IMG/VR virus record: IMGVR_UViG_3300046786_000293
Location: 224,001 to 288,000 of that record
Strand: one strand, 5' to 3'
DNA length: 64,000 bases
Source of the DNA: a virus
Lineage: Duplodnaviria > Caudoviricetes
Below are positions 8,551 through 64,000 of the stretch, piece after piece. The notes under the pieces are model-generated. The model saw only the letters and a list, made by a program, of their open reading frames with translations. It had not been told where the DNA came from and ran no database searches. Within the stretch, counting starts at the first letter, position 1; each line of letters begins with the position of its first letter. The position numbers and the translations under genes are program-made.

Positions 8551-8581
8551 AATGGACACAAAAAACGTGATAAATAACCAT

Positions 8582-8713
8582 ATGGATACTGAAAATAAAG
8601 ATTTGACGGAAAATAAAACTCCGCCAAACGAATCCACTGGGATTTATGTAAGAGGGTTTGTAAAAATTATCGACCCCGAGTCAGGTCAAGTCTACGTAGA
8701 AACTGCAAATTAA
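8582..8713 (+). CDS. 43-aa protein resembling the N-terminus of the next gene
   Basis: Manual translation MDTENKDLTENKTPPNESTGIYVRGFVKIIDPESGQVYVETAN; similar to VQGHIKIYDPVTGEVFRDKPN of 8726..9319; ATAAATA just upstream. Confidence 0.65.
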   Translation: MDTENKDLTENKTPPNESTGIYVRGFVKIIDPESGQVYVETAN

Positions 8714-8725
8714 TGGATATAACAC

Positions 8726-9319: not shown

Positions 9320-9333
9320 GGGATAGTAACAGA

Positions 9334-9341
9334 TATAAATA
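9334..9341 (+). promoter_or_regulatory. T4-type late promoter TATAAATA
   Basis: Exact match 20 nt upstream of 9362; variants (A/G)ATAAATA precede 7414, 8582, 30910, 48217, 60504 and the queD leader. Confidence 0.7.
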
Positions 9342-9361
9342 TACTAAACGGATATTAGAAC

Positions 9362-10831
9362 ATGGCCTATACAATTACACTGACAAACGGTAACGTTTTA
9401 ACCACAATTTCGGACGGTACCGTAAATACGACCTCGACAACACTTACCTTAGTTGGTAAGAATTATGCAGGTTACGGCCAGTTCTTAAACAACGACTTAG
9501 TACATCTACTAGAAAACTATTCGAATGGTACTGCCCCTGCTAATCCTCTACGCGGTCAATTGTGGTGGGATACAGCAGGCAATTTAAAAGTTTGGACCGG
9601 TACTGCATTTAAAACATTAGGATCTATTACTAGTTCTGCATCTACTCCAACGGGCGGGGTAACTGGCAATGGTTGGTGGGATACAACAAACGAGCAATTC
9701 AATGTTTATAACGGTAGCTCGTGGATTCTAGTAGGACCTGCTTTTAGTAGCAACGTAGGAACTAGCGGTGCGATTGTTGAAACAATTACCGACAGTAATG
9801 CATCTACACATTTTGCTACTTCTATCTATATTGCTAACGAGCGTGTAGCTTTATTCAGCAAAGATTCTGCTTATACCCCAAACGTTGCTATTTCGGGAAT
9901 CACTCAAGTAAAACCTGGACTGAATTTAGTAGGCAGTCCTGCTATTAGCGGGGCAAAATATTGGGGCACCGCACAGGATAGCGACTCTGTTGGCGGAATT
10001 AGTTCGACTGTTCTTGCAAGAACAGACGTTGCTGAAGTTTTTGATAACACAGTTACAGCCAACTTAGGTCTGTATGCCGGCACTGCTAGCAATGCTTCTA
10101 TAACAACTAGCGGAACAGTCGTAAGAATTGATAATAATATTAATAATGCTAATATTGCTATTAGAGCAAATGTTGGCGGCGCATTGACAAATGCTTTGTT
10201 TGTAGACGGTTCAACCGGTTTGGTGACTGTGTCAGGAAATGCAACAGCAGCATTGGGTATCGCAACAAAAGCGTATGTTGATGCACAAGTAGGATCGGGA
10301 CCATTGCAACGAGATGGTTCGAATACTATCACAGGTACTATTACCCCTAACGCAAATGCTACAGTTAGTTTTGGTAGTTCATCTAATAGATTTGCTAACG
10401 TATGGGCAGTTACATTTCAGGGTACAGCATTACAAGCTGACTACGCTGACTTAGCAGAACGTTTTGAAGCAGATTCTTATTATGTTCCGGGTACAGTATT
10501 AGCATTAGGTGGTTCTGCCGAAGTCACACTAGAAGATGACGAACTAAGTGAAAATGTTTTTGGTGTAGTAAGTACAAAACCTGGATATATGATGAATTCC
10601 AGTGCCGGTACAAACGACACGCACCCTGCGGTGGCTGTCAGTGGACGAGTACCAGTTAGAGTAGTGGGCAAGATTCGTAAAGGCGATCGTTTAGTTAGTG
10701 CAGGAAACGGATTGGCACGTGCAGGGAAACGATCAGAAATTACATCATTTAATGTCATTGGCCGTAGCTTAGAAGATAAATTTGATGATGTCGAAAGCTC
10801 AATACTTGCCATAGTTAAACTAAATAGTTGA
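9362..10831 (+). CDS. Tail fibre/baseplate protein with C-terminal IMC-like chaperone domain
   Basis: N-terminal LVGKNYAGYG...ENYS...P-NPLRGQLWWD repeats; C-terminal DYADLAERF...GRVPVRV...KGDRLV; TATAAATA upstream. Confidence 0.7.
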   Translation: MAYTITLTNGNVLTTISDGTVNTTSTTLTLVGKNYAGYGQFLNNDLVHLLENYSNGTAPANPLRGQLWWDTAGNLKVWTGTAFKTLGSITSSASTPTGGVTGNGWWDTTNEQFNVYNGSSWILVGPAFSSNVGTSGAIVETITDSNASTHFATSIYIANERVALFSKDSAYTPNVAISGITQVKPGLNLVGSPAISGAKYWGTAQDSDSVGGISSTVLARTDVAEVFDNTVTANLGLYAGTASNASITTSGTVVRIDNNINNANIAIRANVGGALTNALFVDGSTGLVTVSGNATAALGIATKAYVDAQVGSGPLQRDGSNTITGTITPNANATVSFGSSSNRFANVWAVTFQGTALQADYADLAERFEADSYYVPGTVLALGGSAEVTLEDDELSENVFGVVSTKPGYMMNSSAGTNDTHPAVAVSGRVPVRVVGKIRKGDRLVSAGNGLARAGKRSEITSFNVIGRSLEDKFDDVESSILAIVKLNS

Positions 10832-10845
10832 TCGGGACAAAAAAT

Positions 10846-11778
10846 ATGACTTATGCATCGGGTGGATTAATTCAAGCAAGCGATTTTAACAATCTTGCGG
10901 GCGGTAGCGCAGGCGCCAATGTTAGTGGACAACTTAATTGTGTACTGGGAATTGGTAATCGAGATGTTGGTTATGGCCAAACTACAGTTAGTAACGTTGC
11001 TCAATATAATCGAATTTATGCCACTGATTGGGCTAGCCTTATTAATAAATTAAATTCTGTTCGCCAACATCAAACAGGATCTGGCACAGGAATTACAGCC
11101 CCCAGCACAGGTAATTTGATACAATATATAAGCACTTTAAGTAGTAGTATCACAAGTGCCTATTCTAGTAGACTAAGTTATGCTAGTTCAGGTGCAACTA
11201 CCACAGGATCAGACTTTAATGTTTCTTTTCTTGGCGGTGCCGGGGTATCAAACTTTACTACTGTAACAAGAACTGTAACTTTCGGAACTGATCAAAACGC
11301 ACGTTACTTTTTTAATGCTGGCGGAAGATTAACACTTGTTGCATCTGCAACAAATAACAATGCAACTGCTAGAAGTACTAGTATGGTTACATTACTTGGC
11401 ACAAATTTTGGCAGCAAAAGCATGTATGCAATTACATACGGTAGTAGATCGGGCTCAGGCGGCACTGTAAATCTCGACACAACTACGGGTTCTACTGCCG
11501 GATATTACGGAGCCTCGTCGAGCCCGACATACACTAATCATTGTCTAATTTCTCCTAGCGGCTATTATAGTAGCGACCAACTCGAATATTCTACAGCTAC
11601 CAACTTTGTCGGGCCTTCTCAATACGATGCTAACGGCAACGTTATATATCTAAAATTATATTTGTTTAGCCAAGCAGATGCCGATGCACTCGATGTGACA
11701 GTGACCACAAGAGTCGATATTACACCCCCAGAAACAACATACTTGAGTAACACTTGGGGTAGCATTACTGTAAGTTAA
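10846..11778 (+). CDS. Virion structural protein (short fibre-like), paralog A
   Basis: ATG at 10846 preferred because MTYASGGLIQASDFN aligns with the start of the next gene; Ser/Thr/Gly-rich; ARYFFNAGG motif. Confidence 0.6.
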   Translation: MTYASGGLIQASDFNNLAGGSAGANVSGQLNCVLGIGNRDVGYGQTTVSNVAQYNRIYATDWASLINKLNSVRQHQTGSGTGITAPSTGNLIQYISTLSSSITSAYSSRLSYASSGATTTGSDFNVSFLGGAGVSNFTTVTRTVTFGTDQNARYFFNAGGRLTLVASATNNNATARSTSMVTLLGTNFGSKSMYAITYGSRSGSGGTVNLDTTTGSTAGYYGASSSPTYTNHCLISPSGYYSSDQLEYSTATNFVGPSQYDANGNVIYLKLYLFSQADADALDVTVTTRVDITPPETTYLSNTWGSITVS

Positions 11779-34269: not shown

Positions 34270-34508
34270 TTAATTCCCCATTTTAATGTAAAATATGTTG
34301 CGTCTTCTTCTCGTAAGTCTGCAGTGATAACTACCCGCACTCCATATCTTGAAATATCCCAGCCCGTATTCCAAACTGGCGGAGTTATGGCCCGATCCAT
34401 AACCCATTGTCCTTGCTCACTCTTTTCCCATTTATACAACGGATCGGCAATATAAACTTCGATGTCATCTACATCGCCCATATAAAATTCGTGTACGGCG
34501 ATCTTCAA
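34266..34508 (-). CDS. Small protein of the LRW C-terminal motif family
   Basis: Ends [14 protein letters not shown]. Confidence 0.65.
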
Positions 34509-35416
34509 ACCGCCATCTCCGCTTTAATTGTACTATGACTTTGATAATTGATTAATTCAATGTCTGCCATAGTAAACTTATTAATATCTGTAATATTTTG
34601 ATTAAGCTGAAGTTGTGGACCAGATAAGGGTTCACGTGATAATTGCTCTTTTACCTGCTCTACATGATTTAGATATATGTGTGCATCACCTAATACGTGA
34701 ACGAACTCCCCCACATCCAAATTGCACACTTGAGCTATAAGATGCGTTAGCAAACTGTAGCTTGCGATATTGAAGGGTACACCTAAAAACATGTCACAAC
34801 TTCTTTGATACATCTGACAACTTAGTCGATTGTCTGCAACGTAAAACTGGGCAAAGGTATGACACGGTGGGAGGGCCATGGCTTCTAATTCACCTGGGTT
34901 CCATGCTGATAATATATGTCGTCTTCCGTGCGGGTCCCGTTTAATGCCCTCAATAAGATTCTTTAATTGATCGACTTCTTTAAAATGTACGTAGCCTGAT
35001 CTATGAAACTGGTTTCCAAAATCATCTTTAAATGTTTCTTGCTTATGCTCTATAGGTGTGCGCCATTTGCGCCATTGTACTCCATAGACTCTTCCAAGAT
35101 CTCCTGCATATTTTGCTTGAGGATACCAATAATCTGCCAAAGCGTTACCTGTCCATATAGTTGTCTTGCTACTGTCACGAGTACCATGTAGTATTTCGGC
35201 GAGCCGTCGTTCATCGCCGCTTCCTTCGATAAACCATAAAAGTTCGCTTACAACACTTTTCCAAGCTAGCTTCTTAGTAGTGATAGCAGGAAATTCTTTG
35301 CTTAGATCATAACGTTGTTGCATACCAAACACGCTAATAGTACCCGTACCAGTTCTATCTTGTTTGGTTGTACCATTTTCTAATACGTACTTTAATGCGT
35401 CTAAGTATTGTTTCAT
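34505..35416 (-). CDS. thyA: Thymidylate synthase
   Basis: DRTGTGT, TTKK, ELLWF, GRVYG-QW, RRH...WNP, MALPPCH, YQRSCD-FLG-PFN, HIY-NH. Confidence 0.97.
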
Positions 35417-52919: not shown

Positions 52920-53786
52920 TTATTTGCCCCAACCATTGCCCCAAAGGTCAACGTGTAAGCGAGGACTGTAGTAGTATCCTCGACTACATGCCCAGTCTGC
53001 AACTCGCACACGGTTTGCCGCATAAGGAGTGACAACACCACCTTGTGGCATAACGTATACAACACCAGTAAATCCGCCTGCTCTAAATTCTTTTACAGCA
53101 CGCTCTACTTCTGCAAAGTGTTCTTCTGTTTCTACAACAAACTTAAGATAAACGGTGCCTAGATTTTGATAACTGGCCACAATATCAGGACAAATTGCTT
53201 CCTCCCACTTTTCGCCGCTTGCACTTAGTTTGGCACTTACACTGAATGTGACTTCTCTCTTAAAGTCTATACCAGGCAGTTGCCACAGTAATAGATATTC
53301 TGCAAATTTATCTTGCAGACGTTGTGTGCCGTTTGTTTCAAATGTGATATTACGAAGATCCTGCATACCTTCGCGACTTAGCAATTCTTCGTAAGCACGT
53401 TGCCAACCCAGTAGCGGCTCACCGCCTGTAATAACAAGATGTACATCGTTACCGTTGTCTTGCACCCACTTGTGATTGGGTGTTAGTGCAAGCATTTTGT
53501 CTACTAGTTCTTTAGTATCATAATTTGGGCTTAGTTCTTTGAATGCGGGGTGCCAGGATGCATAGCTATCACAGCCGGTGTTGACAAGAGGCAGCTCTTC
53601 AAATGTTTTATAAAGGTGTATGTTCTTTGCCACCTCGTCGGCTTCTTTGCTCTTACTACCAGGAGCGCAGCCAAAGCCTGCACACGTAAAGTTGCATCCA
53701 AACGTTCGAAGGAAAACGCTAGGAACACCAACAAAACGACCTTCGCCCTGTGCAGAGTAGAATAGTTCACTTACTTTAATCTTCAT
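52920..53786 (-). CDS. queE: 7-carboxy-7-deazaguanine synthase (radical SAM)
   Basis: ELFYSAQGEG.FVG.PSVFLRTFGCN, CDS, ITGGEPL, ETNGT, SAKL, PRLH. Confidence 0.9.
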   Translation of the reverse strand: MKIKVSELFYSAQGEGRFVGVPSVFLRTFGCNFTCAGFGCAPGSKSKEADEVAKNIHLYKTFEELPLVNTGCDSYASWHPAFKELSPNYDTKELVDKMLALTPNHKWVQDNGNDVHLVITGGEPLLGWQRAYEELLSREGMQDLRNITFETNGTQRLQDKFAEYLLLWQLPGIDFKREVTFSVSAKLSASGEKWEEAICPDIVASYQNLGTVYLKFVVETEEHFAEVERAVKEFRAGGFTGVVYVMPQGGVVTPYAANRVRVADWACSRGYYYSPRLHVDLWGNGWGK

Positions 53787-54051
53787 ATATTTTTGACCAG
53801 AGTCTTAATTTATCTTTTTTGGCTTGTTTTGCTTGTTCAAGCCTTTCCCATGATAATACATTCTGTTCTACTAGAATGTCAATCATAGCCAATACATCAC
53901 CTATTTCATTTTCTAGCATCGTTGAATGAGTCAACCCTGTTTTATAGTGTTGACTATCAACACCAAACCTGCGACATTTACTAACTTCAACGATAACTTC
54001 AGCACATTCTTCTTGAAGAATGTCTAGTGTTTCTTGGATTTTTGGATTCAT
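53776..54051 (-). CDS. MazG-like nucleotide pyrophosphohydrolase
   Basis: LQEECAEV...SK..RFG...ENEIGDV (EXXE...EXXD). Confidence 0.75.
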   Translation of the reverse strand: MNPKIQETLDILQEECAEVIVEVSKCRRFGVDSQHYKTGLTHSTMLENEIGDVLAMIDILVEQNVLSWERLEQAKQAKKDKLRLWSKIYED

Positions 54052-54236
54052 GTAGTCTTTTCAATTCTTACCATTTTAAAGCAAACCCAACCATCGGGAG
54101 TCTTAACCATGGTACCACCCAATACTTCGCACTGATTGACTCGATCATCAAAACGAGCAAGCGCAAAGCCTGCGGCAATAATTGTAAGGGCCAAGAGTCC
54201 AAACATAATTTTTTCAAATAAACCTAAATTAGTCAT
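54048..54236 (-). CDS. Small membrane protein
   Basis: One hydrophobic helix then C-x3-GG...W-C. Confidence 0.55.
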   Translation of the reverse strand: MTNLGLFEKIMFGLLALTIIAAGFALARFDDRVNQCEVLGGTMVKTPDGWVCFKMVRIEKTT

Positions 54237-54239
54237 AGC

Positions 54240-54431
54240 TCACCAATGTCGAATAACACCTGCAATGATAAAACAGTTTGTTATAATGTATGATAGCACA
54301 ATGGCAGTACGAATGCAAGCAATACGGTCTGCTTCCGAATCCGTACTGCCTGCTTTTTCTCCAAGGGCTTTCGCCCAAAGTCTCCAAATTTTAGTTGCTA
54401 CTTTGAACAATGTTTTCGTTCTCGTCGACAT
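54240..54431 (-). CDS. Small membrane protein
   Basis: W-KALG-K...AD..A..R then hydrophobic helix ending IRHW. Confidence 0.6.
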   Translation of the reverse strand: MSTRTKTLFKVATKIWRLWAKALGEKAGSTDSEADRIACIRTAIVLSYIITNCFIIAGVIRHW

Positions 54432-55032
54432 TAACTTTCTTTTGCAAGAAATTTAGCAACACACCATATGCGGGCAGAATAACAATCAGGCTAACAATAA
54501 TTTTGCTAATGCTATTGTTGGTAGCAACAGTAAACCAATTAGCAGCCATAAATTCATTTGCACCTTTGTAGAATGCTGTGAAGAAGAAGGTGTATGTGTC
54601 GATGAACGTGCTTACGATACTACTTAGAGTAGGAGCAATCCACCAGCTATTATACTTCTCTCGAAAATATTGGAATACATAGACATCTAACAAGTTAGAA
54701 ACAAAGTATGCCATACCCGATCCAAGACCAATTCGGAATGCGACGCTATCAGGTGCTCCGCCCAATTTGACTACTGCCATACTAACTAATATGGCAGGAA
54801 TAAATGCTAACGCAATAACTGCACGGCCTGTTTGTTTACCTAGCAATCGAACAGTCAGGTCTGTTAAAACAACAACTAACGGAAAGGTAAATGCCGCTAC
54901 TGCTAGAGGATTTCCAAAAACGTCAATTTTAAATTGAACAACATAGTTACTAATAGCAATAATGATGATATGAGCTAACATCAACTTATACGCTAATGCA
55001 CGGTCTACGCCGGCTAAAATTTTGTCAAACAT
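54391..55032 (-). CDS. yhhQ: Queuosine precursor transporter (YhhQ/VUT family)
   Basis: IAISNY-VQF, FTFP...TDLTVR..G...R, D-YVF...R, S..IDT..FF. Confidence 0.88.
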   Translation of the reverse strand: MFDKILAGVDRALAYKLMLAHIIIIAISNYVVQFKIDVFGNPLAVAAFTFPLVVVLTDLTVRLLGKQTGRAVIALAFIPAILVSMAVVKLGGAPDSVAFRIGLGSGMAYFVSNLLDVYVFQYFREKYNSWWIAPTLSSIVSTFIDTYTFFFTAFYKGANEFMAANWFTVATNNSISKIIVSLIVILPAYGVLLNFLQKKVNVDENENIVQSSN

Positions 55033-55043
55033 ATTTTTACTCC

Positions 55044-55376
55044 TTAGTGATTACGTTTGCCGTCAAACACACATACAAAATACAATGTATGAGAATTTGA
55101 CTTATTATGAACACGATGGAACACACCGTCTTCAATTAGGACAACGTCGCCTCCTTGAACGGCCAAACGCTTGTCATCTAATTCCATTTCGCCAACGCCA
55201 GAAATAAAATAATATACTTCTTCTTGTCCGGCATGGCTATGTCCTCTTGTACTTTGTCCAGGTTTTAAATCTGTTGAACTTAGTACAAGATTCTTTAGTG
55301 TTTTGTTGTCTTTAAGAACATAAGTTTCATTGTCTTTAACAATGTCACCACCTATATCATATATGCTATATTTCAT
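55044..55376 (-). CDS. Cupin-domain protein
   Basis: GHSH..QEEVYYF..G, GDVV.I..G.FHRV.N. Confidence 0.8.
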   Translation of the reverse strand: MKYSIYDIGGDIVKDNETYVLKDNKTLKNLVLSSTDLKPGQSTRGHSHAGQEEVYYFISGVGEMELDDKRLAVQGGDVVLIEDGVFHRVHNKSNSHTLYFVCVFDGKRNH

Positions 55377-55382
55377 AATAAT

Positions 55383-56036
55383 TTAAAATTCTAAAACAAA
55401 ATGTGAAGTTTTTCTATAAACAGTACGTTTTGCCTTTAAACTCATGTTATCAAATAATTCGTCGTCGATTATTCTACAATGCATTTTTTCTGCGTCAGGC
55501 CATCCGCTTCCAATTGCTATAGGATGCATACCTGGATGATTCGCAATACACATTAGTCCACTAAATTGTTTACAGATATTATCCCACACAGGCTCGAATT
55601 CTTCTTCGAGTATATGTTCAATTGATTCTACCATGAGAACTGTGTCAAATTTTGAAAAATCTGCTACAAAATTTTTAACATTGGTTTCTATGACCTTTGG
55701 CGGAATAAACTCGTCTCCAAAGAACTGTTTACCAGTTCGATCAAACCAATTCTGAATGTTGATTGCTATATCCACCGCAGTAACAGGAATACCTAATTTG
55801 GATAAAACACATGATATTTCTCCTCTGCCAGGCCCTATTTCCAATACATGGTTGGGAGTTCTAGTTTTATAATTATTTAAAAATTGCAACTGATCTTCAA
55901 GTGTATTACACTCGATTAAATCATAAATGCCAAATGCATAACACAAGGCCGGAAACTGATCATTCGACCTTAACATTTTTTTATTCCAATTATCTAAATC
56001 AGAATAAAAATACCCTTCTTGGTATGCAAAACTCAT
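55383..56036 (-). CDS. Class I SAM-dependent methyltransferase
   Basis: VLEIGPGRG, AVDI, FDTV...ESIEHI; start corrected to ATG 56036 (ATGA overlap with queD). Confidence 0.75.
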   Translation of the reverse strand: MSFAYQEGYFYSDLDNWNKKMLRSNDQFPALCYAFGIYDLIECNTLEDQLQFLNNYKTRTPNHVLEIGPGRGEISCVLSKLGIPVTAVDIAINIQNWFDRTGKQFFGDEFIPPKVIETNVKNFVADFSKFDTVLMVESIEHILEEEFEPVWDNICKQFSGLMCIANHPGMHPIAIGSGWPDAEKMHCRIIDDELFDNMSLKAKRTVYRKTSHFVLEF

Positions 56037-56536
56037 GCAAATAAATCCTCGTTCCATTCACGATGACCTTCACGGAATGCCATATTGCTTTGTGTTTCAC
56101 GCACCTCTACACGATAGCACCATAGTCGTTGTGCTTCTCCTGGCCCCCACAGGTCAGGTATATAAACACCATTGACATACTTGTAAAGCATGTCGGCCAG
56201 GCCTTCGCAACCCAGTCTCGGTAAGACTACAACCTTGGCCATTTTCTTGGCTTCTAGTAGTTTGTATGTTTCCATTTCAGGATCATCTTGTGCCACAATC
56301 AACGTGTGGTCGAACATATCCTCTAATAACTTCTTCAAGTCTTTCAATCCACCGTAGTCAGCGGCCCAGTTGCGTACATCTAGGTCATTAGTACCAAAGT
56401 AAAACTTCATTGAAAAACTGTAGCCATGAATTAAGTTACAGTGACTATCGGCACGCCATTGACGATACGCACAGGGAAATGCGTCGTGATATTCTTTGGT
56501 GCTTGTGTATTTGTAGGTAATTGTTTGATTTGCCAT
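56033..56536 (-). CDS. queD: 6-carboxy-5,6,7,8-tetrahydropterin synthase
   Basis: HCNLIHGYS (CxxxHG), DYGGLK, FDH, CEGLA, V.VRET..N. Confidence 0.88.
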   Translation of the reverse strand: MANQTITYKYTSTKEYHDAFPCAYRQWRADSHCNLIHGYSFSMKFYFGTNDLDVRNWAADYGGLKDLKKLLEDMFDHTLIVAQDDPEMETYKLLEAKKMAKVVVLPRLGCEGLADMLYKYVNGVYIPDLWGPGEAQRLWCYRVEVRETQSNMAFREGHREWNEDLFA

Positions 56537-56574
56537 CTCTAGTCTCCTTTATGTTAGGTAGCAAGTTTGATGGT

Positions 56575-56613
56575 ATGCAGAATCTTTATAGAGGGATGAA
56601 TGCCAAGTCCTCT
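56575..56613 (-). ncRNA. Candidate preQ1 class I-like riboswitch aptamer in the queD leader
   Basis: AGAGG-ACTTGGCATTCATC-CCTCT-ATAAA: P1 stem and A-rich tail match the B. subtilis queC aptamer pattern AGAGG-N12-CCTCT-ATAAA; begins 8 nt after an AATAAATA promoter. P2 pseudoknot partner not evident. Confidence 0.55.
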
Positions 56614-56624
56614 TGAGTAAGTAT

Positions 56625-57134
56625 TTATTCCCACCAACGCTCGTAGGGAAAAACAATCCATTCTTTTTTGCTTTTAGTAATCTCTTCGCCACTAAAGTCT
56701 ATGGTAACGTGGGACTTACTGCTAACGTTATCGTATACTACTGCAAATTTTACATTATGATTCCAAACATCTTTCCAACTTGGATCCTTGGGTAAACAAC
56801 TAGATTGCCAATCTTCGATAAGCCAATTAATTGTTTTACCTGTATCATTGATGTCGTCGACAATGAGAATCTTTTTGCGAGCAGTTACCTCAGGCTTGCC
56901 GTATTCGTAGCCAAATGCATCTTCAGCCATCCACAAATTACTTTCGTTAGTTTCGGGCTTGCTGGTTACATGTAGTGCATACATAGGAATATCAAAATAG
57001 TGACTAATCATAACTGCGGGAATAAGACCACCGCGAGTTAGTCCTACAATATAATCGGGGCGCCAATTACTAATAGCAATGCTTCGACAAATTTTAGCGA
57101 CCCGGCTATTATATTCTTTATTAGTAAGATCCAT
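56625..57134 (-). CDS. Type I phosphoribosyltransferase (Gpt/Hpt-like)
   Basis: IVGLTRGG, ILIVDDINDTGKT (PRPP loop), WIVFPYE. Confidence 0.88.
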   Translation of the reverse strand: MDLTNKEYNSRVAKICRSIAISNWRPDYIVGLTRGGLIPAVMISHYFDIPMYALHVTSKPETNESNLWMAEDAFGYEYGKPEVTARKKILIVDDINDTGKTINWLIEDWQSSCLPKDPSWKDVWNHNVKFAVVYDNVSSKSHVTIDFSGEEITKSKKEWIVFPYERWWE

Positions 57135-57459
57135 GTTGTTCTCGTTCCATTTGTTCTTTAAGATTATGATTAGTGATTATATTACTAAACTTAAGTATAA
57201 ACATACTAGCAATACTAGCATCTTCACCATTGAAATGCAATCTACTGCCGCCGAGGCCATTTTGATGATGATGACACCATTTACCTTTGCCGTATGATAC
57301 GTAAGGTACATTATTTTCTTTGCCCCGGCTATTCCAAAAGTGTTCGACTTTTTTATTGCCGCCAATTTGGTCGTACCATTCAACAACTTCGTCGTTGAGT
57401 TCTTCTATGTCTATCCAAATTGGATAAACTACTCGACACCCTGGGGGTAGTGCTATCAT
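57121..57459 (-). CDS. Divergent LRW-family protein
   Basis: VVEWYDQIG...HFNGEDASIASMFILKF plus extension. Confidence 0.55.
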   Translation of the reverse strand: MIALPPGCRVVYPIWIDIEELNDEVVEWYDQIGGNKKVEHFWNSRGKENNVPYVSYGKGKWCHHHQNGLGGSRLHFNGEDASIASMFILKFSNIITNHNLKEQMEREQHGSY

Positions 57460-57905
57460 TTTGCCCTTTCAGACAAATATTGTTCCCACTGTACCCATTG
57501 TCCTTTGCGTAGGAATCCCCATTCGCGTTGTTTTGCTCCGGGCATAAACAATGTCCAACAAGTTACATCAGGATCAAGTTCGATACGATGATAACTGTTT
57601 GCACTACAAATACGAAAGTGTCCGGGGCCACGCCAATGTTGAAATTCGGCAATCTTAACTCCTTGATTGTTAAACACAGGAGTCCATTCCCAATATCCGC
57701 CTTTAAGGATAATAGTTGCATAGGGCCAAGGATGATCGTGCAAATCGTCGGGGTCGGACTTAAGAAATTTGTGTAGAAATATGTTAAATGGAAACCGTGT
57801 TCTGTCTTTGAGAAACACATAATAGCGTTCCAAGTAAGGTTCGTTGTTGACACGGTCCATAACAATACGTTTACGACCTAACTTTTCTAGCAATTTAAGA
57901 AACAT
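57456..57905 (-). CDS. Cupin-fold protein
   Basis: LHDHPW...ILKGGY.E, YHRIEL, WTLF. Confidence 0.65.
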   Translation of the reverse strand: MFLKLLEKLGRKRIVMDRVNNEPYLERYYVFLKDRTRFPFNIFLHKFLKSDPDDLHDHPWPYATIILKGGYWEWTPVFNNQGVKIAEFQHWRGPGHFRICSANSYHRIELDPDVTCWTLFMPGAKQREWGFLRKGQWVQWEQYLSERAK

Positions 57906-57950
57906 AATAGTCCTTTAAAGTTTTGCACATAGATTTTAGTTGAAATAACT

Positions 57951-59192
57951 TTATAAGTCAATGCTTAAAGTTGGTTTGGTAAAATAGACATTTGTTCTAT
58001 TGCTGTCGTTTACTGTGTAAACAAAACCCCATTTATTACCAATTCGAATCGGAAGTGTGATTTGTTTATTTGGTATTTGTGTATACGCTCTACGAGTCCA
58101 GCGGCCTTGCCCGCTTATTAACATTTGCGGACTAGTCCAAATATCAGGGATACCGTCGCCATTAAAATCTTGAATCATAGGCATGTAATCAATATCTATA
58201 TTTGAATTAAAATCAGTTAAGTTAGTTTGATCTACAAAGTTAAAATTACCTTGATTAATTAAAATTTGTACTCGACCTTCGGCAGTCCATTGATTGTTTC
58301 TTGCTGACGCCCACGGTCTACTAAACACAACAATATCTTGTAGTCCGTCATTGTTCATGTCTGCTACTTTACATCTTACATCGTGACTAATTTCAGTAAG
58401 ACCAGAATTACCAACTTCATAGTGGGGTGGAGTTAATAAATGTTGTGCAACAGGCTTTAAATTTGAATTTAGTTCGAATACAGCAGTATCATTAAATGGC
58501 CATTGTCCGTTGGCAATATTTAAATCGGTAATGACTATCTGTTTGCGTCCGTCGTTTGCAAAATCTCCCACGCATACTCCCATACCATGCATCCAGAACA
58601 AACTATTGGCCCAGGTGTGGTCTTTAAATGTAAAGTTGCCGGAACCGTCGTTGATCCACATTTTGCCTTCTGCATCCACAACGTCTAAATTTCCATCACT
58701 ATTAATATCGGCTACAGTTGCACTATGACTCCATGTATATTCTAATAATTGATGACTATGATATGTGCCTGGACGACTTAAAAATAGATGTGTAACAGTA
58801 AGTTGGTTTGAGATATCTACAAAACCTGGCAAAAATATATCGTCTATTCCGTCATTATTAAAATCTGCCACCAACGGTGTTGCTACACTAACTCTAGGTA
58901 CACTGGGCCCGAGAATATCTGCCGTTACATCAGTGCCGCCACCATTTTCATTTAATTTAAAAATATTAACGGGCACAGTCCCGCCCATTTCAATCTGACT
59001 GCCTGTAACTAATACGTAAGTATTACTGTCATTTTTAAAATGGCCTTGCACTATTGCAACACCCATAAAATAATCTGTTTGAATGCCTTTAATAAATGTG
59101 GAATCAACAGTAGCAGAACTACTAGAACCTCCACCGCCTCCGCCACAAGCAGACAACAACAGGCTAAAAAGAAAGGGTATGACTAGTTTCAT
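57951..59192 (-). CDS. Lipoprotein with FG-GAP/VCBS repeats
   Basis: Lipobox LLSAC then GGGGGGSSSS; repeats ADFNNDGIDDI, ADINSDGNLDV, GDFANDGRKQI, ADMNNDGLQDI, QDFNGDGIPDI. Confidence 0.8.
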   Translation of the reverse strand: MKLVIPFLFSLLLSACGGGGGGSSSSATVDSTFIKGIQTDYFMGVAIVQGHFKNDSNTYVLVTGSQIEMGGTVPVNIFKLNENGGGTDVTADILGPSVPRVSVATPLVADFNNDGIDDIFLPGFVDISNQLTVTHLFLSRPGTYHSHQLLEYTWSHSATVADINSDGNLDVVDAEGKMWINDGSGNFTFKDHTWANSLFWMHGMGVCVGDFANDGRKQIVITDLNIANGQWPFNDTAVFELNSNLKPVAQHLLTPPHYEVGNSGLTEISHDVRCKVADMNNDGLQDIVVFSRPWASARNNQWTAEGRVQILINQGNFNFVDQTNLTDFNSNIDIDYMPMIQDFNGDGIPDIWTSPQMLISGQGRWTRRAYTQIPNKQITLPIRIGNKWGFVYTVNDSNRTNVYFTKPTLSIDL

Positions 59193-59198
59193 ACCCCA

Positions 59199-59227
59199 AT
59201 TATACAGCCAAAATGAATTTTTGTCTG
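59199..59227 (-). promoter_or_regulatory. Early promoter for the lipoprotein
   Basis: CAGACA-17-TATAAT; AAAAA(T/C)AACAGACA-like context shared with 46268; ATG 6 nt downstream. Confidence 0.7.
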
Positions 59228-59235
59228 TTGTATTT

Positions 59236-59694
59236 TTACGACGGATTTCTGAGTAATTCCATGCTCACAATTTGGGCAATTGCCGCAGATGCATCTTCGG
59301 TGTCGGGAATTACATAATTTTGGTATTGATTTCTGTCGTTGCGGTGATCGTAACTACGCATACTCAAGATGATTCCGCCTCGAGCACTAGTTACTTGGAA
59401 TCGAATTGCGTGGTCATCTTGGTAACCGAGTTCATCTTCTCTAGTAGAGATAGATACTTTAGCTTCATTTTCCGGGAACATGAATGCGTGTAGTTTGCGA
59501 CGTAGCCATTCTTTCATAGTTGATTTTTCTTTGAGTTTAGTTGCTTTAGTTACAGTGGAGTTTCTGTAATTTTTTGGATAGACTTTTCCTGCAGGGATTC
59601 CCTGGCTTCCAATTGCGTTACTTCGAATCCTCGGTACAGAGTATTGCGAGTTCGCGTAGTTTGAGTTCGGCATCTTTAAGACTTTCGATTGCAT
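59236..59694 (-). CDS. Hypothetical protein
   Basis: ORF track; start possibly at 59673 or 59517. Confidence 0.55.
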   Translation of the reverse strand: MQSKVLKMPNSNYANSQYSVPRIRSNAIGSQGIPAGKVYPKNYRNSTVTKATKLKEKSTMKEWLRRKLHAFMFPENEAKVSISTREDELGYQDDHAIRFQVTSARGGIILSMRSYDHRNDRNQYQNYVIPDTEDASAAIAQIVSMELLRNPS

Positions 59695-59983
59695 CTGCCA
59701 CAGCAGGATGTTTCTTTGCTAATTCTTGATATTCAAGTTGACGAGCACGTTCTTCTTTGGCCCAGTCTATTGCTTGTTGAGCATCCGGAGTCAGCTCTAC
59801 AGTTGTATAGTTTGTGGGCATAGTAATCCACGAATTGCCATCGTAGACTTCTATGTTCTGTGTGCTTGGACTATATCGCATGTTGCCTATACCGGTGGCA
59901 CCACTATAAGCATTTAAATACATTGAGCTAGAGCTACCGTTAATAACATTAACGTGCTTGCCGCCCATTATACCTTTAATCAT
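59618..59983 (-). CDS. Hypothetical protein
   Basis: 121-aa ORF with helical C-terminus. Confidence 0.6.
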   Translation of the reverse strand: MIKGIMGGKHVNVINGSSSSMYLNAYSGATGIGNMRYSPSTQNIEVYDGNSWITMPTNYTTVELTPDAQQAIDWAKEERARQLEYQELAKKHPAVADAIESLKDAELKLRELAILCTEDSK

Positions 59984-60203
59984 CTAGTTCCATCTCGCTG
60001 GCTTCGCGAACTAGAGCAACTAGCTCGTCTATCGAGCCGACCATAATTTTAGCAGTTTTGTAGTCGCCTTTTTTGTTCCGACCACCAACTTCAAACATAA
60101 ATCCATTGTCGTAACGATTGATGGTGAAAGATTCGTTAACCTTGGTCAGTTTGTCGCTGACCTTGGTTACAGGTTTAGCAGTTGCCATAATTGATTTTTC
60201 CAA
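59976..60203 (-). CDS. Hypothetical protein
   Basis: 75-aa ORF. Confidence 0.6.
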   Translation of the reverse strand: MEKSIMATAKPVTKVSDKLTKVNESFTINRYDNGFMFEVGGRNKKGDYKTAKIMVGSIDELVALVREASEMELDD

Positions 60204-60222
60204 GTTGGTTGATTGATTTAAT

Positions 60223-60504
60223 TTACTGTGGATCGCGATCTTTGTTAGCAGCTAATTTAGCATTCACTTCATCGTGAATCTCAGACATGCGAGGTGTACC
60301 CAAAGCGTTTTGCACCCACTGTATCATAGTATCATTAGTAAATGCACTAGCAGGTTGGCCTTGTGCTTCTGCTGGTAAATCAGTAAGTTCTCCTAGCACT
60401 TCTTGCATATAAGCGCCGTCTCTAACAAAATAACCCCAACGAATGCGGTTTAAATTGCCTTGTTCGTTGTTGAATGTTTCCATAATGTGCCAATGGTAAT
60501 CCAT
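60223..60504 (-). CDS. Hypothetical late protein
   Basis: GGAG SD and GATAAATA at 60524-60531. Confidence 0.6.
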   Translation of the reverse strand: MDYHWHIMETFNNEQGNLNRIRWGYFVRDGAYMQEVLGELTDLPAEAQGQPASAFTNDTMIQWVQNALGTPRMSEIHDEVNAKLAANKDRDPQ

Positions 60505-60526
60505 AGATATCTCCTAATATTAGTAT

Positions 60527-61255
60527 TTATCGTGGTGCAAATTCTTGTTGGAGCTTGATATTGTCAAAGAATTCTTTCTTTGTGCCTGCATCATCTTTAA
60601 AAGCACCTCTTAGAACAGTGGTTTGCGTGAGACTAGAGTGCGCCATAATGCCGCGATTTTCACAGCACCCGTGCGTGGCTTGGATGTAGACCGCAACATC
60701 CTTGGAACCAGTAGCAAACTCAATCTCTCTTGCAATGTCCATGCACAACTCTTCTTGTAGTGTGCCTCGACGAGCGCACCATTGAGCGATGCGACTATAC
60801 TTCGATAACCCAATAAGTTTAGGTCCAGCAATAATACCAATATACGCAACACCCGAAACAGGTTGGTGATGATGGCTACACATACTCTTGAGTTCGCTAC
60901 GAACAACAAGCATTCCGTCATACTTACCTTCACTATCATTAGGGAACGCAGTAGCATTGGGACTTTGTTCATATCTACCTGCCATAATCTCATTGAAATA
61001 CATTTTAGCAAGTCTACGTGCTGTACCTTGACTATTAGGATCAGTCTCTCGATCAATTAGTAGTCGATCAAGCACTAATTCAAATGCTTCTGTTGCTTCG
61101 TCGATAAGTTGGTCCATATGAAACTCATCAACATAATCACTGATGTTGTCTCCAGCCCAGAAACGTTTACCTTCTCGTTTCATTTTAAAACGAAGTACAT
61201 CTGCCAGGTACGCTTCTTCGTAACCACCTGTGTCTAATTCCTTACCGATATCCAT
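60527..61255 (-). CDS. folE: GTP cyclohydrolase I
   Basis: TARRLAKM, SMCSHH.QP, GLSK..R, LQEEL, ATHGC..NRG. Confidence 0.95.
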   Translation of the reverse strand: MDIGKELDTGGYEEAYLADVLRFKMKREGKRFWAGDNISDYVDEFHMDQLIDEATEAFELVLDRLLIDRETDPNSQGTARRLAKMYFNEIMAGRYEQSPNATAFPNDSEGKYDGMLVVRSELKSMCSHHHQPVSGVAYIGIIAGPKLIGLSKYSRIAQWCARRGTLQEELCMDIAREIEFATGSKDVAVYIQATHGCCENRGIMAHSSLTQTTVLRGAFKDDAGTKKEFFDNIKLQQEFAPR

Positions 61256-61258
61256 TAA

Positions 61259-61885
61259 TTATTCCTCGATTGTAAATTGCCGCAAATCTGCGTATTCAAC
61301 ATATTTTGGTTTAGGCTTATTTTCTTTAACGCCCTTTAACAACGCTAACCCCCATTCTGCTTCTTCGGGTCGCGGTTTGTAGTGATAACCTATCTTAAAT
61401 ACTTTTTGATCAGTCCACGGTTTAATATTTAGGTCGCGACCGTCATACCGCATACGAATTAATGCTTCATATGCTTGTGCATCGTCTAATAGTATAGCAC
61501 CACCTCTGCCTATATGTAAAGGTTTATCGTGTCCAAAACTCAAACATTGAATCATTCCAGGGCGATACATATTTTGTTCTAGTCGACGAGCACTATCCCA
61601 AATGCGAGTAAGTTCGAACTTATACTCGCCAACCCAGTGTTGACGATGTGACACAGTGTCGGGGTAGTACTCGTACTTGATACCTAATTTATGCATGGTC
61701 ATTGGAATGCTAATATAGGTATACGGCGTAAATGTACATTGTTTAATGTTGTCGTAGCGCATACACATTTCAATGGCATGGGTACAACAATCAGTCATAA
61801 TGGCATAAGGTGCGCCAGTAAACTCTGCCAGTTCTCGTTCGAACTGAAAAATTTTATCAAAACCTGTTAACGAGCTCATTTGCAC
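61259..61885 (-). CDS. Short DegT-like PLP-dependent enzyme
   Basis: TDCCTHAI, DSA, SFG.DKPL..G.GG; much shorter than the 371-aa paralog at 32210. Confidence 0.7.
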   Translation of the reverse strand: MQMSSLTGFDKIFQFERELAEFTGAPYAIMTDCCTHAIEMCMRYDNIKQCTFTPYTYISIPMTMHKLGIKYEYYPDTVSHRQHWVGEYKFELTRIWDSARRLEQNMYRPGMIQCLSFGHDKPLHIGRGGAILLDDAQAYEALIRMRYDGRDLNIKPWTDQKVFKIGYHYKPRPEEAEWGLALLKGVKENKPKPKYVEYADLRQFTIEE

Positions 61886-62924
61886 TAAAAAACTTTTCCG
61901 TTAAATCCAATGCCTGTTGTTTAATCAACGGCAAATAACTATCATATTCTTCGATATAGGATGTAATACGATTACAAATATCTGTTTTGTTGGCTACATA
62001 ACTGTCCCAAGTAATAGTCCAGTTACTGGGATATTTAAACCGGTCGGTGTACATTTCTGAATAGGACAATCGATCAGGCACCATGGGAATAGCATCTACT
62101 AATGCACCTTCGTAACATCCGATACCCAATGTTTCTTGTAGACTAGCACTGAACACAATCTTTGCTTCGCCGAGAATATTATGATATTCATTCTTTGTTA
62201 GTGCTTGATCCTGACAAACAACAAATTCATACTGGGGCAGTTGTTCTTTAAGATCTCTAAATATTTCAACTTGCTTCTCAGGCGCAATACGATGCGGGAA
62301 TACAACAAGGTTGCGCTTAGTCATACCTTTGTATGGAGCAAGAGTTTGGTCCATATACTCCATGGGCCAACCAGTGCGTACAATCTTATCGTTGTCGTGA
62401 TTTTCTCGCAAACCAACAATACAACCTAGTAGTTCTTCACAAAACAATTCGATGTGAAAGTCTGTAGCAAAGTAGTTATAATCAATAGCGTGGAAGAAAC
62501 TCTTCTCTGCATGACGTACCCATGGGGTGTTACCAATTAACCGACCTAGAAAGTCGTGGGGATCATAACTACCAGCATGCCACAATGCGTGAATCTTAAC
62601 TGGTGTGTTAAGAAGTTCACTCATATACTTTAAGTTTATGATGCCAGGATGCCAAGCATCAGTAAACAAAAAATGATCGCCAGGCTTAACTGCTCCGGAG
62701 CAGAATAAACGGCCCATTCCTTCAACTTGAGCAGACTTATAGATATTAGTCCCACCAAAGTTAAGAAAAGCACCAGGAGTGGTTGCACTAGGGATATCCG
62801 TAGGACCAGCAAGAATTTGAACATTGTGTCCGGCCTTTCTCAGCAAGTTAGGTACGTGATCTTTCCACTGAGCCGTGTAGCGTGTTTCTACAGGCTCAAG
62901 ATCTATCAAAAAGATATTAGCCAT
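61857..62924 (-). CDS. GT-B fold glycosyltransferase (GT4-like)
   Basis: FPHRIAPEKQ, SASLQETLGIGCYEG (E-x7-E), PDRLSYSE. Confidence 0.75.
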   Translation of the reverse strand: MANIFLIDLEPVETRYTAQWKDHVPNLLRKAGHNVQILAGPTDIPSATTPGAFLNFGGTNIYKSAQVEGMGRLFCSGAVKPGDHFLFTDAWHPGIINLKYMSELLNTPVKIHALWHAGSYDPHDFLGRLIGNTPWVRHAEKSFFHAIDYNYFATDFHIELFCEELLGCIVGLRENHDNDKIVRTGWPMEYMDQTLAPYKGMTKRNLVVFPHRIAPEKQVEIFRDLKEQLPQYEFVVCQDQALTKNEYHNILGEAKIVFSASLQETLGIGCYEGALVDAIPMVPDRLSYSEMYTDRFKYPSNWTITWDSYVANKTDICNRITSYIEEYDSYLPLIKQQALDLTEKFFSANELVNRF

Positions 62925-63120
62925 TTGCTCGTTCGGCTTGTCTCATTTGCCAGTTACGAGTCTTTTCAAATTTGCGATATTGCTCGCTTTTATAAAGATC
63001 GCGCTCGTCAAACTTTAACATATTAAAACGACAGTAATCTTTATACTGCTCAAGATCATCAAAGATCCTGTTGACTTCTGGTTTAATTTTGAGATATTTC
63101 TCTACCCATTTTTCAGCCAT
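62917..63120 (-). CDS. Hypothetical protein
   Basis: 67-aa ORF. Confidence 0.6.
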   Translation of the reverse strand: MAEKWVEKYLKIKPEVNRIFDDLEQYKDYCRFNMLKFDERDLYKSEQYRKFEKTRNWQMRQAERANG

Positions 63121-63131
63121 TTTATTTTCCT

Positions 63132-63581
63132 TTAGATTTTAACACTAAGATTAGGTCGGTGAGTTTCATATTTAATAAGTGCGCCGTTTTCACCATCTTC
63201 AGCCACTTCAATCCAAACTGCCCGATTGGGATACCGTTCAGCAATTTGTAGATATAAGTCATCTGCAATCATTTCGCAGGATTTGTAGTCGAGTTTGAGG
63301 ATTCCGCCTGCGTAGAGATTTTCGAGCCAGCGTTTGAATTGGATGAACTCGATGTCTCTGTCATTGTGTACAACATCAATCCACACCCGGAAATGGAAGA
63401 TATGGCGGTGAGGACTGCCAAGGAAACTAACGTCATACTCATCGCCCGTCGCAAGTTCGGGTGCTGTTGCGGCTGCTGGATAGCAGTGTATTCCTTCTTT
63501 GCGGAAGGTAATCCAGATTTTTCGTTCTGCATGTTGCTTGATTCTTTCAACAGTTTCTCGGTCAGTTGCGTTCATTTTCAT
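63132..63581 (-). CDS. QueD-like T-fold protein, candidate CDG decarboxylase (DpdL-like)
   Basis: LGSPHRHIF (LxxxHRHxF) replaces the QueD CxxxHGH; DIEFI, SCEMIA, V.EDGENG. Confidence 0.6.
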   Translation of the reverse strand: MKMNATDRETVERIKQHAERKIWITFRKEGIHCYPAAATAPELATGDEYDVSFLGSPHRHIFHFRVWIDVVHNDRDIEFIQFKRWLENLYAGGILKLDYKSCEMIADDLYLQIAERYPNRAVWIEVAEDGENGALIKYETHRPNLSVKI

Positions 63582-64000
63582 CTTCCTCTTCTACTGGAAA
63601 TACAGTTGTATCTCCTACATAATCTTTCCAATCGGTATATACACTACGAGACATTAGTTTATTAAGAGGATGACACCATACGCCAGTATTTGTATCGCCC
63701 CAAGTATTATCATCAATCTTAACAGTGGCATGGTAGTTATATAGTCTAATATAAGGAATCTTAACACTGATCATGGGAATAAATGTTTTATATTCGCACC
63801 ATGATTGCTCATGTAGATCTCTACAATATTGTACATCAAAGTCTAGTGTAACATAATAGTCTTTAACTAGCAAGGGTTTGATCATGTCATCCCATTGTGC
63901 CCAATCGTAAGGACTGAAGGGATGAAAACTTTGGCTAGTACCAAAGTAGATATGCCGAATCTTATGTTTTTCTGCTAGTTTAACGATTTCGTCTACAGGT
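63562..64000 (-). CDS. Hypothetical protein in deazaguanine cluster (5' partial)
   Basis: Frame is open from 63885 to the window edge: PVDEIVKLAEKHKIRHIYFGTSQSFHPFSPYDWAQWDDMIK... Confidence 0.7.
   Translation of the reverse strand, partial: PVDEIVKLAEKHKIRHIYFGTSQSFHPFSPYDWAQWDDMIKPLLVKDYYVTLDFDVQYCRDLHEQSWCEYKTFIPMISVKIPYIRLYNYHATVKIDDNTWGDTNTGVWCHPLNKLMSRSVYTDWKDYVGDTTVFPVEEEDENERN

Follow-up and report, generated by a model that had tools for sequence, protein, structure and literature searches.

Viral DNA is known to carry eight 7-deazaguanine derivatives, all of them without a sugar. In Cellulophaga phage phiST, 2'-deoxyguanosine is completely replaced by 2'-deoxy-7-deazaguanosine (dDG), and work on this phage has defined DpdL and DpdA3 and described a QueC-less, DpdL-based route (Cui, Hutinet et al., 2023, PMC10516641). 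For every known case the same study concludes that the base is inserted after replication (PMC10516641); all phages with complete replacement cluster their deazaguanine genes with a polymerase gene. A deazaguanine system has also been noted in the Pseudomonas jumbo phage PA5oct (PMC7824862), whose DNA, the base of which was not identified, resists G-site restriction enzymes and is cut by nucleases sensing modified G (PMC12191111). Our literature search found no paper identifying the nucleosides of PA5oct (Wroclawvirus) or of the phages Acidovorax ACP17 and Phosso, and none tying a glycosyltransferase to deazaguanine systems or describing a glycosylated deazaguanine. Here we describe a deazaguanine gene cluster, and a glycosyltransferase (GT) encoded within it, in a stretch of 64,000 nucleotides (the window) that comprises bases 224001-288000 of the 338,510-bp IMG/VR record IMGVR_UViG_3300046786_000293, a freshwater phage with a CheckV completeness of 97%. 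This phage is kin to the jumbo phages PA5oct and Sinorhizobium Phosso (PolB about 50% identity, common gene order). The core of the module is the already known DpdL-type system, and the conserved GT is the added element.

Results

Between position 52920 and the end of the window lie genes for FolE, QueD, a QueE-like enzyme and a second T-fold protein, which is DpdL, a predicted 7-carboxy-7-deazaguanine decarboxylase. Its LGSPHRHIF fits LxxxHRHxF, the motif which stands in place of CxxxHGH and which 73 out of 75 counted family members retain, and it is 58% identical to ACP17 DpdL, a protein named as such by Cui et al., and 37-38% to phiST DpdL. QueD, 52% identical to its ACP17 and 35% to its phiST counterpart, has the CxxxHGY motif common to both. 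In all QueD proteins of DpdL systems examined, a tyrosine stands in place of the second zinc-binding histidine of the canonical CxxxHGH. FolE is 60% identical to that of Phosso, and the QueE-like protein matched the NCBIfam QueE models weakly, under their cut-offs (E 1e-9 to 1e-10). No QueC was found in the 97%-complete genome, in which the sole PF06508 match is an NAD synthase (PF02540, E 1e-44; genome positions 107754-108719, L001:910-1875, outside the window), a weak 'QueC' match caused by the PP-loop; nor did the genome contain a PF14489 match that would indicate QueF. Since DpdL is present while QueC and QueF were not found, the cluster belongs to the QueC-less route, as in phiST, and judged from its sequence it is a deazaguanine DNA-modification module of the phiST/ACP17/PA5oct type.

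The module extends past position 64000 as far as the PolB gene, which ends at window-equivalent position 74069, and so lies beside a DNA polymerase gene. Some 3.5 kb past the end of the window, beside the clamp and PolB genes, is a gene for a DpdA-like protein of 518 aa with the fold of tRNA-guanine transglycosylases (TGTs). Its AlphaFold (AF2) model has a predicted local distance difference test (pLDDT) score of 90.4, and the top 50 Foldseek matches in the PDB are all TGTs (E 4e-6, probability 1.0, TM 0.5, target-normalised). In an alignment of 56 diverse homologues, D102-S103-G-G105 (GDSGGFQ) and D294 (SFDC) are invariant; these resemble the two catalytic-aspartate motifs of tRNA-guanine transglycosylase. 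About 1000 representative relatives of the protein were found at E up to 0.001. By hhalign its family is linked to ACP17 gp123 (96%) and, more weakly, to phiST DpdA3 (79%), in both cases at profile level alone. No match to Pfam TGT (PF01702) or DpdA (PF23859) was found in the genome or in 56 members of the DpdA-like family, phiST DpdA3 as a BLAST and phmmer query gave no match in the genome, and in a tblastn search of phages it reached close kin alone. A hidden Markov model (HMM) of the 518-aa family likewise gave no link to TGT among PDB sequences, so that fold comparison and hhalign alone provided one. Recognition of DpdA3 by Cui et al. similarly required HHpred (PMC10516641). The last 50 residues, modelled with low confidence, form a C-terminal tail in which F-(N/G)-S-L-F-(E/D) recurs (here TMFNSLFDQ), a pattern counted loosely; as the gene adjoins the clamp gene, this tail may be a clamp-binding tether.

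An earlier note on the window, made from its letters and open reading frames (ORFs), had proposed an extended 7-deazaguanine cluster, and FolE, QueD, QueE, DpdL and the DpdA-like protein bear it out. Family, PHROG and fold evidence places all the gene classes that it listed on the minus strand of 52920-64000, with an FG-GAP repeat protein and several small ORFs also interleaved among them. The same note had suggested that dpdA and queC might lie beyond the window edge: the former is represented there by the TGT-fold gene, whereas for the latter only the NAD synthase turned up.

The likeness to phiST covers FolE, QueD with CxxxHGY, QueE, DpdL with LxxxHRHxF, the lack of QueC, a TGT-superfamily protein, a small nucleoside triphosphate pyrophosphohydrolase (MazG- or dUTPase-like) and the polymerase neighbourhood. 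However, phiST has no GT, purine phosphoribosyltransferase (PRTase), YhhQ or sugar or redox enzymes, and its DpdA3 has 259 aa. With ACP17, PA5oct and Phosso the locus shares DpdL at 58-69% and the GT at 39-52% identity, and with the latter two also the long DpdA-like protein (28-34% identity) and the PolB-clamp neighbourhood. The regions examined in these three phages differ from the present one in having no counterparts of its genes for a DegT-like protein, the Gfo/Idh/MocA-like (Gfo) and zinc alcohol dehydrogenase-like (ADH) pair, YhhQ, a methyltransferase or a twitch-domain radical S-adenosylmethionine (SAM) protein.

The GT is, as the earlier note had it, a genuine GT-B enzyme, and it is specifically tied to deazaguanine genes across many phages. 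It falls under the cut-off of Pfam Glycos_transf_1 (11 bits, E 0.29). Its AF2 model (pLDDT 80) found almost exclusively glycosyltransferases of the two-Rossmann-domain GT-B fold among the top 50 PDB matches in Foldseek (probability 1.0, TM 0.6-0.65), the nearest being the retaining GT4/GT5 enzymes glycogen synthase, BshA, MshA, PglA and PimA, and its atlas features lead to GT1 family clusters (score 0.97-1.0), in which PF00534 is found in 29-92% of the members. GT4-like retaining GT-B enzymes are marked by an EX7E motif and by basic residues for binding of the donor diphosphate; E264-x7-E272 is present in 80 of 80 relatives and R212 and K217 are invariant, so that the catalytic apparatus looks intact.

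Relatives of the module were taken from 80 IMG/VR loci recovered by the GT, on which all counts out of 80 rest (Table 1); QueE, FolE and PRTase are found in fewer of them than other genes partly because contigs end. The order PolB, clamp, DpdA-like, (Gfo, ADH), p219, DpdL, p67, GT, then PRTase, FolE, MazG and QueE is kept in these relatives, p219 and p67 being conserved proteins without assigned function. In a survey of 50,697 phage records, 28 matched DpdL and 23 the GT, with 18 common to both: Phosso, the PA5oct group, ACP17, BUCT-ZZ01, Xanthomonas phages BUDD and X1, and Burkholderia phage BCSR5. The two genes lie less than 3 kb apart in all 18. GT homologues there include ACP17 gp124, PA5oct gp167 and a Phosso protein annotated 'glycosyltransferase'. 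In ACP17, PA5oct and X1 the GT gene adjoins, or is one gene away from, a DpdA-like or annotated TGT gene, and in BUCT-ZZ01 it follows DpdL directly; the PA5oct DpdA-like gene is gp168. Over all sources, the GT gene neighbours DpdL or the DpdA-like gene in the 80 uncultured relatives, in six cultured phage lineages and in two bacterial islands. The other five GT records are partial matches at 25% identity, of which the one opened (PhiXhv-12) proved to lie in a GlmS/BshB-type sugar cluster. Phages with DpdL and no GT match are the phiST group, MA9V-3, RHph_I1_18, Ahp1, Bakedbeans and D479, among which phiST is the one whose plain dDG was measured. A pyridoxal phosphate (PLP) enzyme had been put forward together with the GT, yet as a conserved partner it did not hold, the DegT-like gene being present in 10 of the 80 relatives.

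Most other 'genome' matches to the GT are phage contigs binned into metagenome-assembled genomes. Nevertheless, an adjoining DpdA-like and GT pair occurs alone, without que genes, in two isolates of bacteria (Ochrobactrum sp. MYb379 and Rhizobiales strain AFS055504), and neither genome yielded a DpdL. In bacteria the GT is rare: in a sample of 401 genomes from the order to which the Ochrobactrum match belongs, it turned up in one. Occurrence of the GT independently of que genes had been named by the earlier note as grounds for abandoning its proposal; the two bacteria do show such independence, but the GT sits there beside a DpdA-like gene, and because it keeps that neighbour without que genes, its fixed partner is the transglycosylase. 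The surrounding integrase-flanked islands (L096:1370-15820 in MYb379; L097 in AFS055504) contain, besides two integrases and DUF6641, restriction genes of the Mrr and GmrSD types and large uncharacterised proteins (853 and 411 aa). They may represent a rare mobile DNA-modification or defence island. Bacterial Dpd systems resemble this arrangement in having a TGT-superfamily enzyme that exchanges guanine in DNA, DpdA, DpdB and DpdC inserting preQ0 or 7-amido-7-deazaguanine (ADG), together with restriction genes, as the two bacterial pairs also lie in mobile islands with Mrr and GmrSD. They differ in that the present module has no Pfam DpdA or TGT match, that DpdB and DpdC were not seen among the annotated neighbours of DpdA-like genes, that the base here would be 7-deazaguanine (DG) rather than preQ0 or ADG, and that the partner is a GT and not an ATPase.

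Table 1. Genes of the module and its surroundings. Positions beyond 64000 are window-equivalent; the third column gives positions in locus L002, and the last the number of the 80 related loci with the gene
Feature	Position	Position in L002	Strand	Basis	Related loci
QueE-like radical SAM enzyme (7-carboxy-7-deazaguanine synthase), 288 aa	52920-53786		minus	phrog_2076 'QueE-like radical SAM domain', E 8.8e-52, residues 1-285	50
MazG-like nucleoside triphosphate pyrophosphohydrolase, 91 aa	53776-54051		minus	phrog_4856, E 6e-19; Pfam MazG, E 4.5e-4, slightly under cut-off	21
YhhQ/Vut_1 queuosine-precursor (preQ0/preQ1) transporter, 213 aa	54391-55032		minus	Pfam Vut_1, E 3.8e-22, 79.7 bits vs 27.2; TIGR00697, 105.9 bits vs 50.95 cut-off; PRK11212, E 1.9e-53	5
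Cupin_2 protein, 110 aa	55044-55376		minus	Pfam Cupin_2, E 3.6e-15	3
Class I SAM-dependent methyltransferase, 224 aa	55383-56057		minus	Pfam Methyltransf_23/11/25	0
QueD (6-carboxytetrahydropterin synthase), 167 aa	56033-56536		minus	Pfam PTPS, E 1.5e-14	
Gpt-like purine PRTase, 169 aa	56625-57134		minus	Pfam Pribosyltran, E 3e-13; phosphoribosyl pyrophosphate (PRPP) loop ILIVDDINDTGKT; best NCBIfam match xanthine PRTase PRK09177, E 2e-8	41
112-aa protein	57121-57459		minus	no family in Pfam, NCBIfam or PHROGs	2
Cupin of phage 'cysteine dioxygenase' family, 149 aa	57456-57905		minus	phrog_4786, E 1.1e-40	63
FG-GAP repeat protein, 413 aa	57951-59192		minus	Pfam FG-GAP_3, E 2e-25	1
FolE (GTP cyclohydrolase I), 242 aa	60527-61255		minus	Pfam, E 7.3e-39; NCBIfam FolE, E 1.9e-39	46
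Short DegT/DnrJ/EryC1-like PLP protein, 208 aa (family about 370)	61259-61885		minus	Pfam, 51 bits vs 19.8 cut-off, two stretches	10
GT4-like GT-B glycosyltransferase, 355 aa	61857-62924		minus	AF2 model and Foldseek	
67-aa protein (p67) between DpdL and GT	62917-63120		minus	tblastn match	75
DpdL (proposed 7-carboxy-7-deazaguanine decarboxylase; QueD-like T-fold)	63132-63581		minus	motif LGSPHRHIF; phrog_17812, E 1e-35	76
Conserved gene upstream of DpdL (p219), about 175-219 aa	63562-64221 (3' part in window, to 64000)	562-1221	minus	homologue of ACP17 gp122, HMM E 2.6e-24	75
Zn-ADH-like oxidoreductase	64097-65026	1097-2026	minus	ADH_N, E 1.8e-9	23-24 (as pair)
Gfo/Idh/MocA-like oxidoreductase	64999-65874	1999-2874	minus	GFO_IDH_MocA, E 1.8e-4	23-24 (as pair)
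Twitch-domain radical SAM protein	66325-67467	3325-4467	minus	NF033640, 283.6 bits vs 170 cut-off	2
DpdA-like TGT-fold protein, 518 aa	67460-69016	4460-6016	minus	AF2 fold, Foldseek, hhalign, motifs	69
Second 219-aa protein, unknown	69006-69665		minus		
Clamp-like protein	69665-70396		minus		63
SAM methyltransferase	70442-71413		minus	methyltransferase domains	
PolB	71388-74069	8388-11069	minus	DNA_pol_B, E 1.9e-37	62

Discussion

We propose that FolE, QueD and QueE, going by their families, would convert GTP to 7-carboxy-7-deazaguanine (CDG), that DpdL would decarboxylate CDG to 7-deazaguanine, and that the 518-aa DpdA-like enzyme would act on replicated phage DNA, putting the deaza base in the place of guanine. 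Salvage of the released guanine is the most likely task of the Gpt-like PRTase, and the MazG-like enzyme may trim the nucleotide pool. The GT would most likely move a sugar from a nucleoside diphosphate (NDP)-sugar to the deaza base, in DNA or shortly before insertion, and in the present phage that sugar would be modified, perhaps into an amino sugar, by the Gfo and ADH pair together with the DegT-like protein; NDP-sugar enzymes encoded next to the GT in relatives fit a sugar-donor supply line. We regard the core, a QueC-less DpdL-type replacement of guanine by 7-deazaguanine in DNA, as very probable from sequence and by analogy, the restriction resistance of PA5oct and the dDG replacement in phiST both coming with homologous modules. 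A DpdL-type module with an added glycosyltransferase step appears the best explanation of the whole, although we would put its chance of being right somewhat below even. That the sugar ends up on the DNA base is a tentative prediction, and the fuller proposal, in which the GT puts a sugar on 7-deazaguanine in DNA and the variable genes give each lineage its own version, is doubtful. Of the hypermodified deazaguanine foreseen by the earlier note, the tie between GT and module is borne out, whereas a glycosylated base is still conjecture, phiST with DpdL and no GT holding plain dDG.

Several points weigh against this explanation. 7-Deazaguanine has no hydroxyl group, so that the acceptor atom for the GT is unclear. 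Because phiST makes plain dDG without a GT, the enzyme is not needed for the core reaction, and because the bacterial DpdA-like and GT pairs have no DpdL, an acceptor shared by all the GTs cannot depend on DpdL. The sugar-tailoring genes vary and are often absent in relatives. The DegT-like protein may not be a working aminotransferase, as it has about 55% of the usual length: its match covers model positions 22-85 and a second stretch around the lysine, well short of a full-length two-domain enzyme of fold-type I (about 360-400 aa), although the SFGHDK...GRGG lysine motif is kept in 12 of 12 family members and the short length recurs (median 203 aa). Hydroxylation by the 149-aa cupin followed by glycosylation was considered and is weakened. 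This cupin, in which H56-D57-H58 and H106 are invariant, belongs to a family found in 102 phage records, most from phage groups without a DpdL match, and for this reason is probably not pathway-specific; nor was it found in the ACP17, PA5oct and Phosso regions. Finally, the DpdL and DpdA proteins of phiST and of ACP17 gave no dDG in Escherichia coli, and DpdL decarboxylase activity was not reconstituted (PMC10516641); the GT may explain the failure of the ACP17 pair.

Glycosylation of hydroxymethyl-pyrimidines is disfavoured as an alternative target. The sole ThyA-family gene in the genome (window 34508-35413, L100:1501-2406) scores 363 bits against an equivalog cut-off of 327 and is a true thymidylate synthase, so that no ThyA-type hydroxymethyl-pyrimidine pathway was found. 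Glucosyl-hydroxymethylcytosine of T-even phages, made with DNA alpha- and beta-glucosyltransferases, offers a comparison: there, too, a GT-B enzyme is encoded with a DNA base-modification pathway, and sugars vary by lineage, likely as an arms-race trait. In the T-even phages, however, the sugar goes to the hydroxymethyl group of a pyrimidine that is modified while still a nucleotide, for which no ThyA-type hydroxymethylase is found here, and the present GT is nearest to GT4/GT5 structures, not to T4 AGT or BGT.

One possible alternative is that the final base is plain dDG, as in phiST, and that the GT and the sugar and redox enzymes act elsewhere, on a small molecule, on some protein (the DpdA-like enzyme itself, for instance) or on glycans of the host envelope or virion, being linked to the module merely by shared early expression beside the replication genes. 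The full replacement achieved by phiST without a GT and the want of an obvious acceptor in 7-deazaguanine both speak for this, and the variation of sugar-tailoring genes between relatives recalls the glycan-diversifying clusters of jumbo cyanophages (PMC7824862). Set against it, the position of the GT is fixed between DpdL and the remaining que genes in all relatives examined, independent phage lineages and the two bacterial islands have it next to DpdA-type genes that are divergent, and among phages lacking DpdL it turned up only as the remote 25%-identical matches; we consider this alternative unlikely on balance. Should the sugar prediction fail, the GT would still need explaining, as no other unexplained gene accompanies the long DpdA-like enzyme so faithfully.

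A second alternative dispenses with base exchange as the main route of entry: the PRTase would make a deaza monophosphate, kinases and ribonucleotide reductase the dNTP, the MazG-like or HIT-domain enzymes would remove dGTP, and PolB would incorporate the analogue, leaving the TGT-fold protein to repair or top up. A DpdA-independent, nucleotide-level reading was our initial lead and was dropped as such once the TGT-fold gene had been found past the window. Its appeal lies in the PRTase and MazG-like genes inside the module, the former present in 41 of the 80 relatives and also in the PA5oct and BUCT-ZZ01 clusters. A HIT-domain nucleotide hydrolase/transferase is found in the module of 30 relatives (e.g. 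L072:13360-13737), though not in the present cluster, and a GMP reductase lies between the PRTase and MazG/QueE in nine (e.g. L075:4092-5186; NF003470, 555 bits vs 397 cut-off), where it could serve either to turn salvaged guanine into IMP or to process deaza-GMP at the nucleotide level. There is a precedent in the toyocamycin and tubercidin pathways (ToyH/TubE PRTase, ToyE GMP reductase), in which a PRTase acts on 7-deazaguanine bases. These pathways resemble the module in FolE, QueD, QueE and a purine PRTase, with GMP reductase in some relatives; they differ in belonging to Streptomyces secondary metabolism without DpdA or DpdL, and the PRTase here is Gpt-like and may merely recycle guanine. 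The clustering of deazaguanine genes with the polymerase in complete-replacement phages also suits incorporation by PolB. Yet the DpdA-like enzyme, with intact catalytic-type motifs, is present in 69 of the 80 relatives, the GMP reductase beside the PRTase fits guanine recycling at least equally, the PRTase is missing in many relatives, though some of those loci are cut by contig ends, and insertion is post-replicative in the known cases (PMC10516641). A nucleotide-pool route is improbable in our view.

We think it quite improbable that the GT acts before insertion, either making a glycosylated or activated base for the DpdA-like enzyme or serving as an obligatory helper subunit, as DpdB does for bacterial DpdA, with no sugar left on DNA. 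No gene neighbours the GT as closely or as generally as the DpdA-like gene, which holds also in the bacteria without que genes, and ACP17 DpdL and DpdA alone were inactive in E. coli; but the phiST pair failed there as well, and phiST has no GT (PMC10516641). The invariant EX7E, lysine and arginine, moreover, indicate a working sugar transferase rather than a scaffold. Modification of phage or host tRNA by the TGT-fold enzyme and the GT with a queuosine-like, possibly glycosylated base, YhhQ importing the precursors, is very improbable: the fold matches of the DpdA-like protein are tRNA-guanine transglycosylases, the phage carries a large tRNA island, YhhQ is a queuosine-precursor transporter and in animals a GT-B enzyme attaches a sugar to tRNA queuosine, but the homologous modules of phiST and PA5oct go with modified DNA, the DpdA-like gene sits between clamp and polymerase genes, DpdL and the absent QueC lead away from preQ1 and queuosine, and YhhQ is found in only five of the 80 relatives.

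If the proposed glycosylation is correct, this would be the first sugar-bearing purine in any genome. It would also point to diversifying purine hypermodifications, parallel to the glucosyl- and arabinosyl-hydroxymethylcytosines of T-even phages: the variation would come from Gfo, ADH and the DegT-like protein in the present phage, from a nucleotide-sugar dehydrogenase in 18 relatives and from a flavin-halogenase-like enzyme in five. Bacteria with the DpdA-like and GT pair would then possess a rare mobile island for DNA modification. Decoration of the base by the GT would mean a novel kind of DNA chemistry in an abundant group of freshwater and soil jumbo phages, among them PA5oct, which is studied for phage therapy. 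It would matter for restriction evasion, type IV and END-type defences and enzymatic DNA labelling, and for the base-calling of environmental phage DNA by nanopore and PacBio sequencing. The prediction is testable in the cultured phages PA5oct, ACP17, Phosso and X1.

Additional features of the locus

From 52920 to the end of the window all sizeable ORFs are on the minus strand and, as neighbouring genes overlap or are few bases apart, they form a packed co-directional array. A scan for promoters and terminators gave a result not above that for shuffled sequence. The FG-GAP protein is probably an unrelated insert in the module. At its 5' end, on the minus strand (59174-59197), is a 9-bp hairpin with a T-run, the hairpin scan as a whole being no better than chance. 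For p219 no Pfam or PHROG family was found, and its atlas leads, glycoside-hydrolase-like fragments with a score of about 0.84, were too weak and were not used.

Frequent extras in the relatives are the PRTase, the 149-aa cupin, MazG and the Gfo and ADH pair; the DegT-like protein, YhhQ, cupin_2, the twitch radical SAM protein and FG-GAP are rare. The DegT-like protein, YhhQ, cupin_2, the two methyltransferases (that of 224 aa being seen in the present phage and in none of the 80 loci) and the twitch radical SAM protein are lineage-specific additions. In four relatives a nearby slot holds a radical SAM/SPASM protein of another kind (L010:1558-2694), and an FAD oxidoreductase fills the same slots as these extras in some. 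Directly after the GT, 18 relatives encode a truncated nucleotide-sugar dehydrogenase (e.g. L032:10872-11669; TIGR03026, E 7e-43; 265 aa vs about 413), which suggests a sugar donor of uronic-acid type in those phages.

Five related contigs encode a tryptophan-halogenase-like flavin enzyme (PF04820, E 4e-30) between the DpdA-like protein and DpdL, and a halogenated deazaguanine is on this sequence evidence a possible product. The enzyme occurs in a 513-aa form (L055 and L059:6026-7567) and a 406-aa form (L069, L072 and L077:6759-7979). The longer form contains GGGSSG and WLWNIP, the latter matching the WxWxIP halogenase signature, which is present in two of the five loci.

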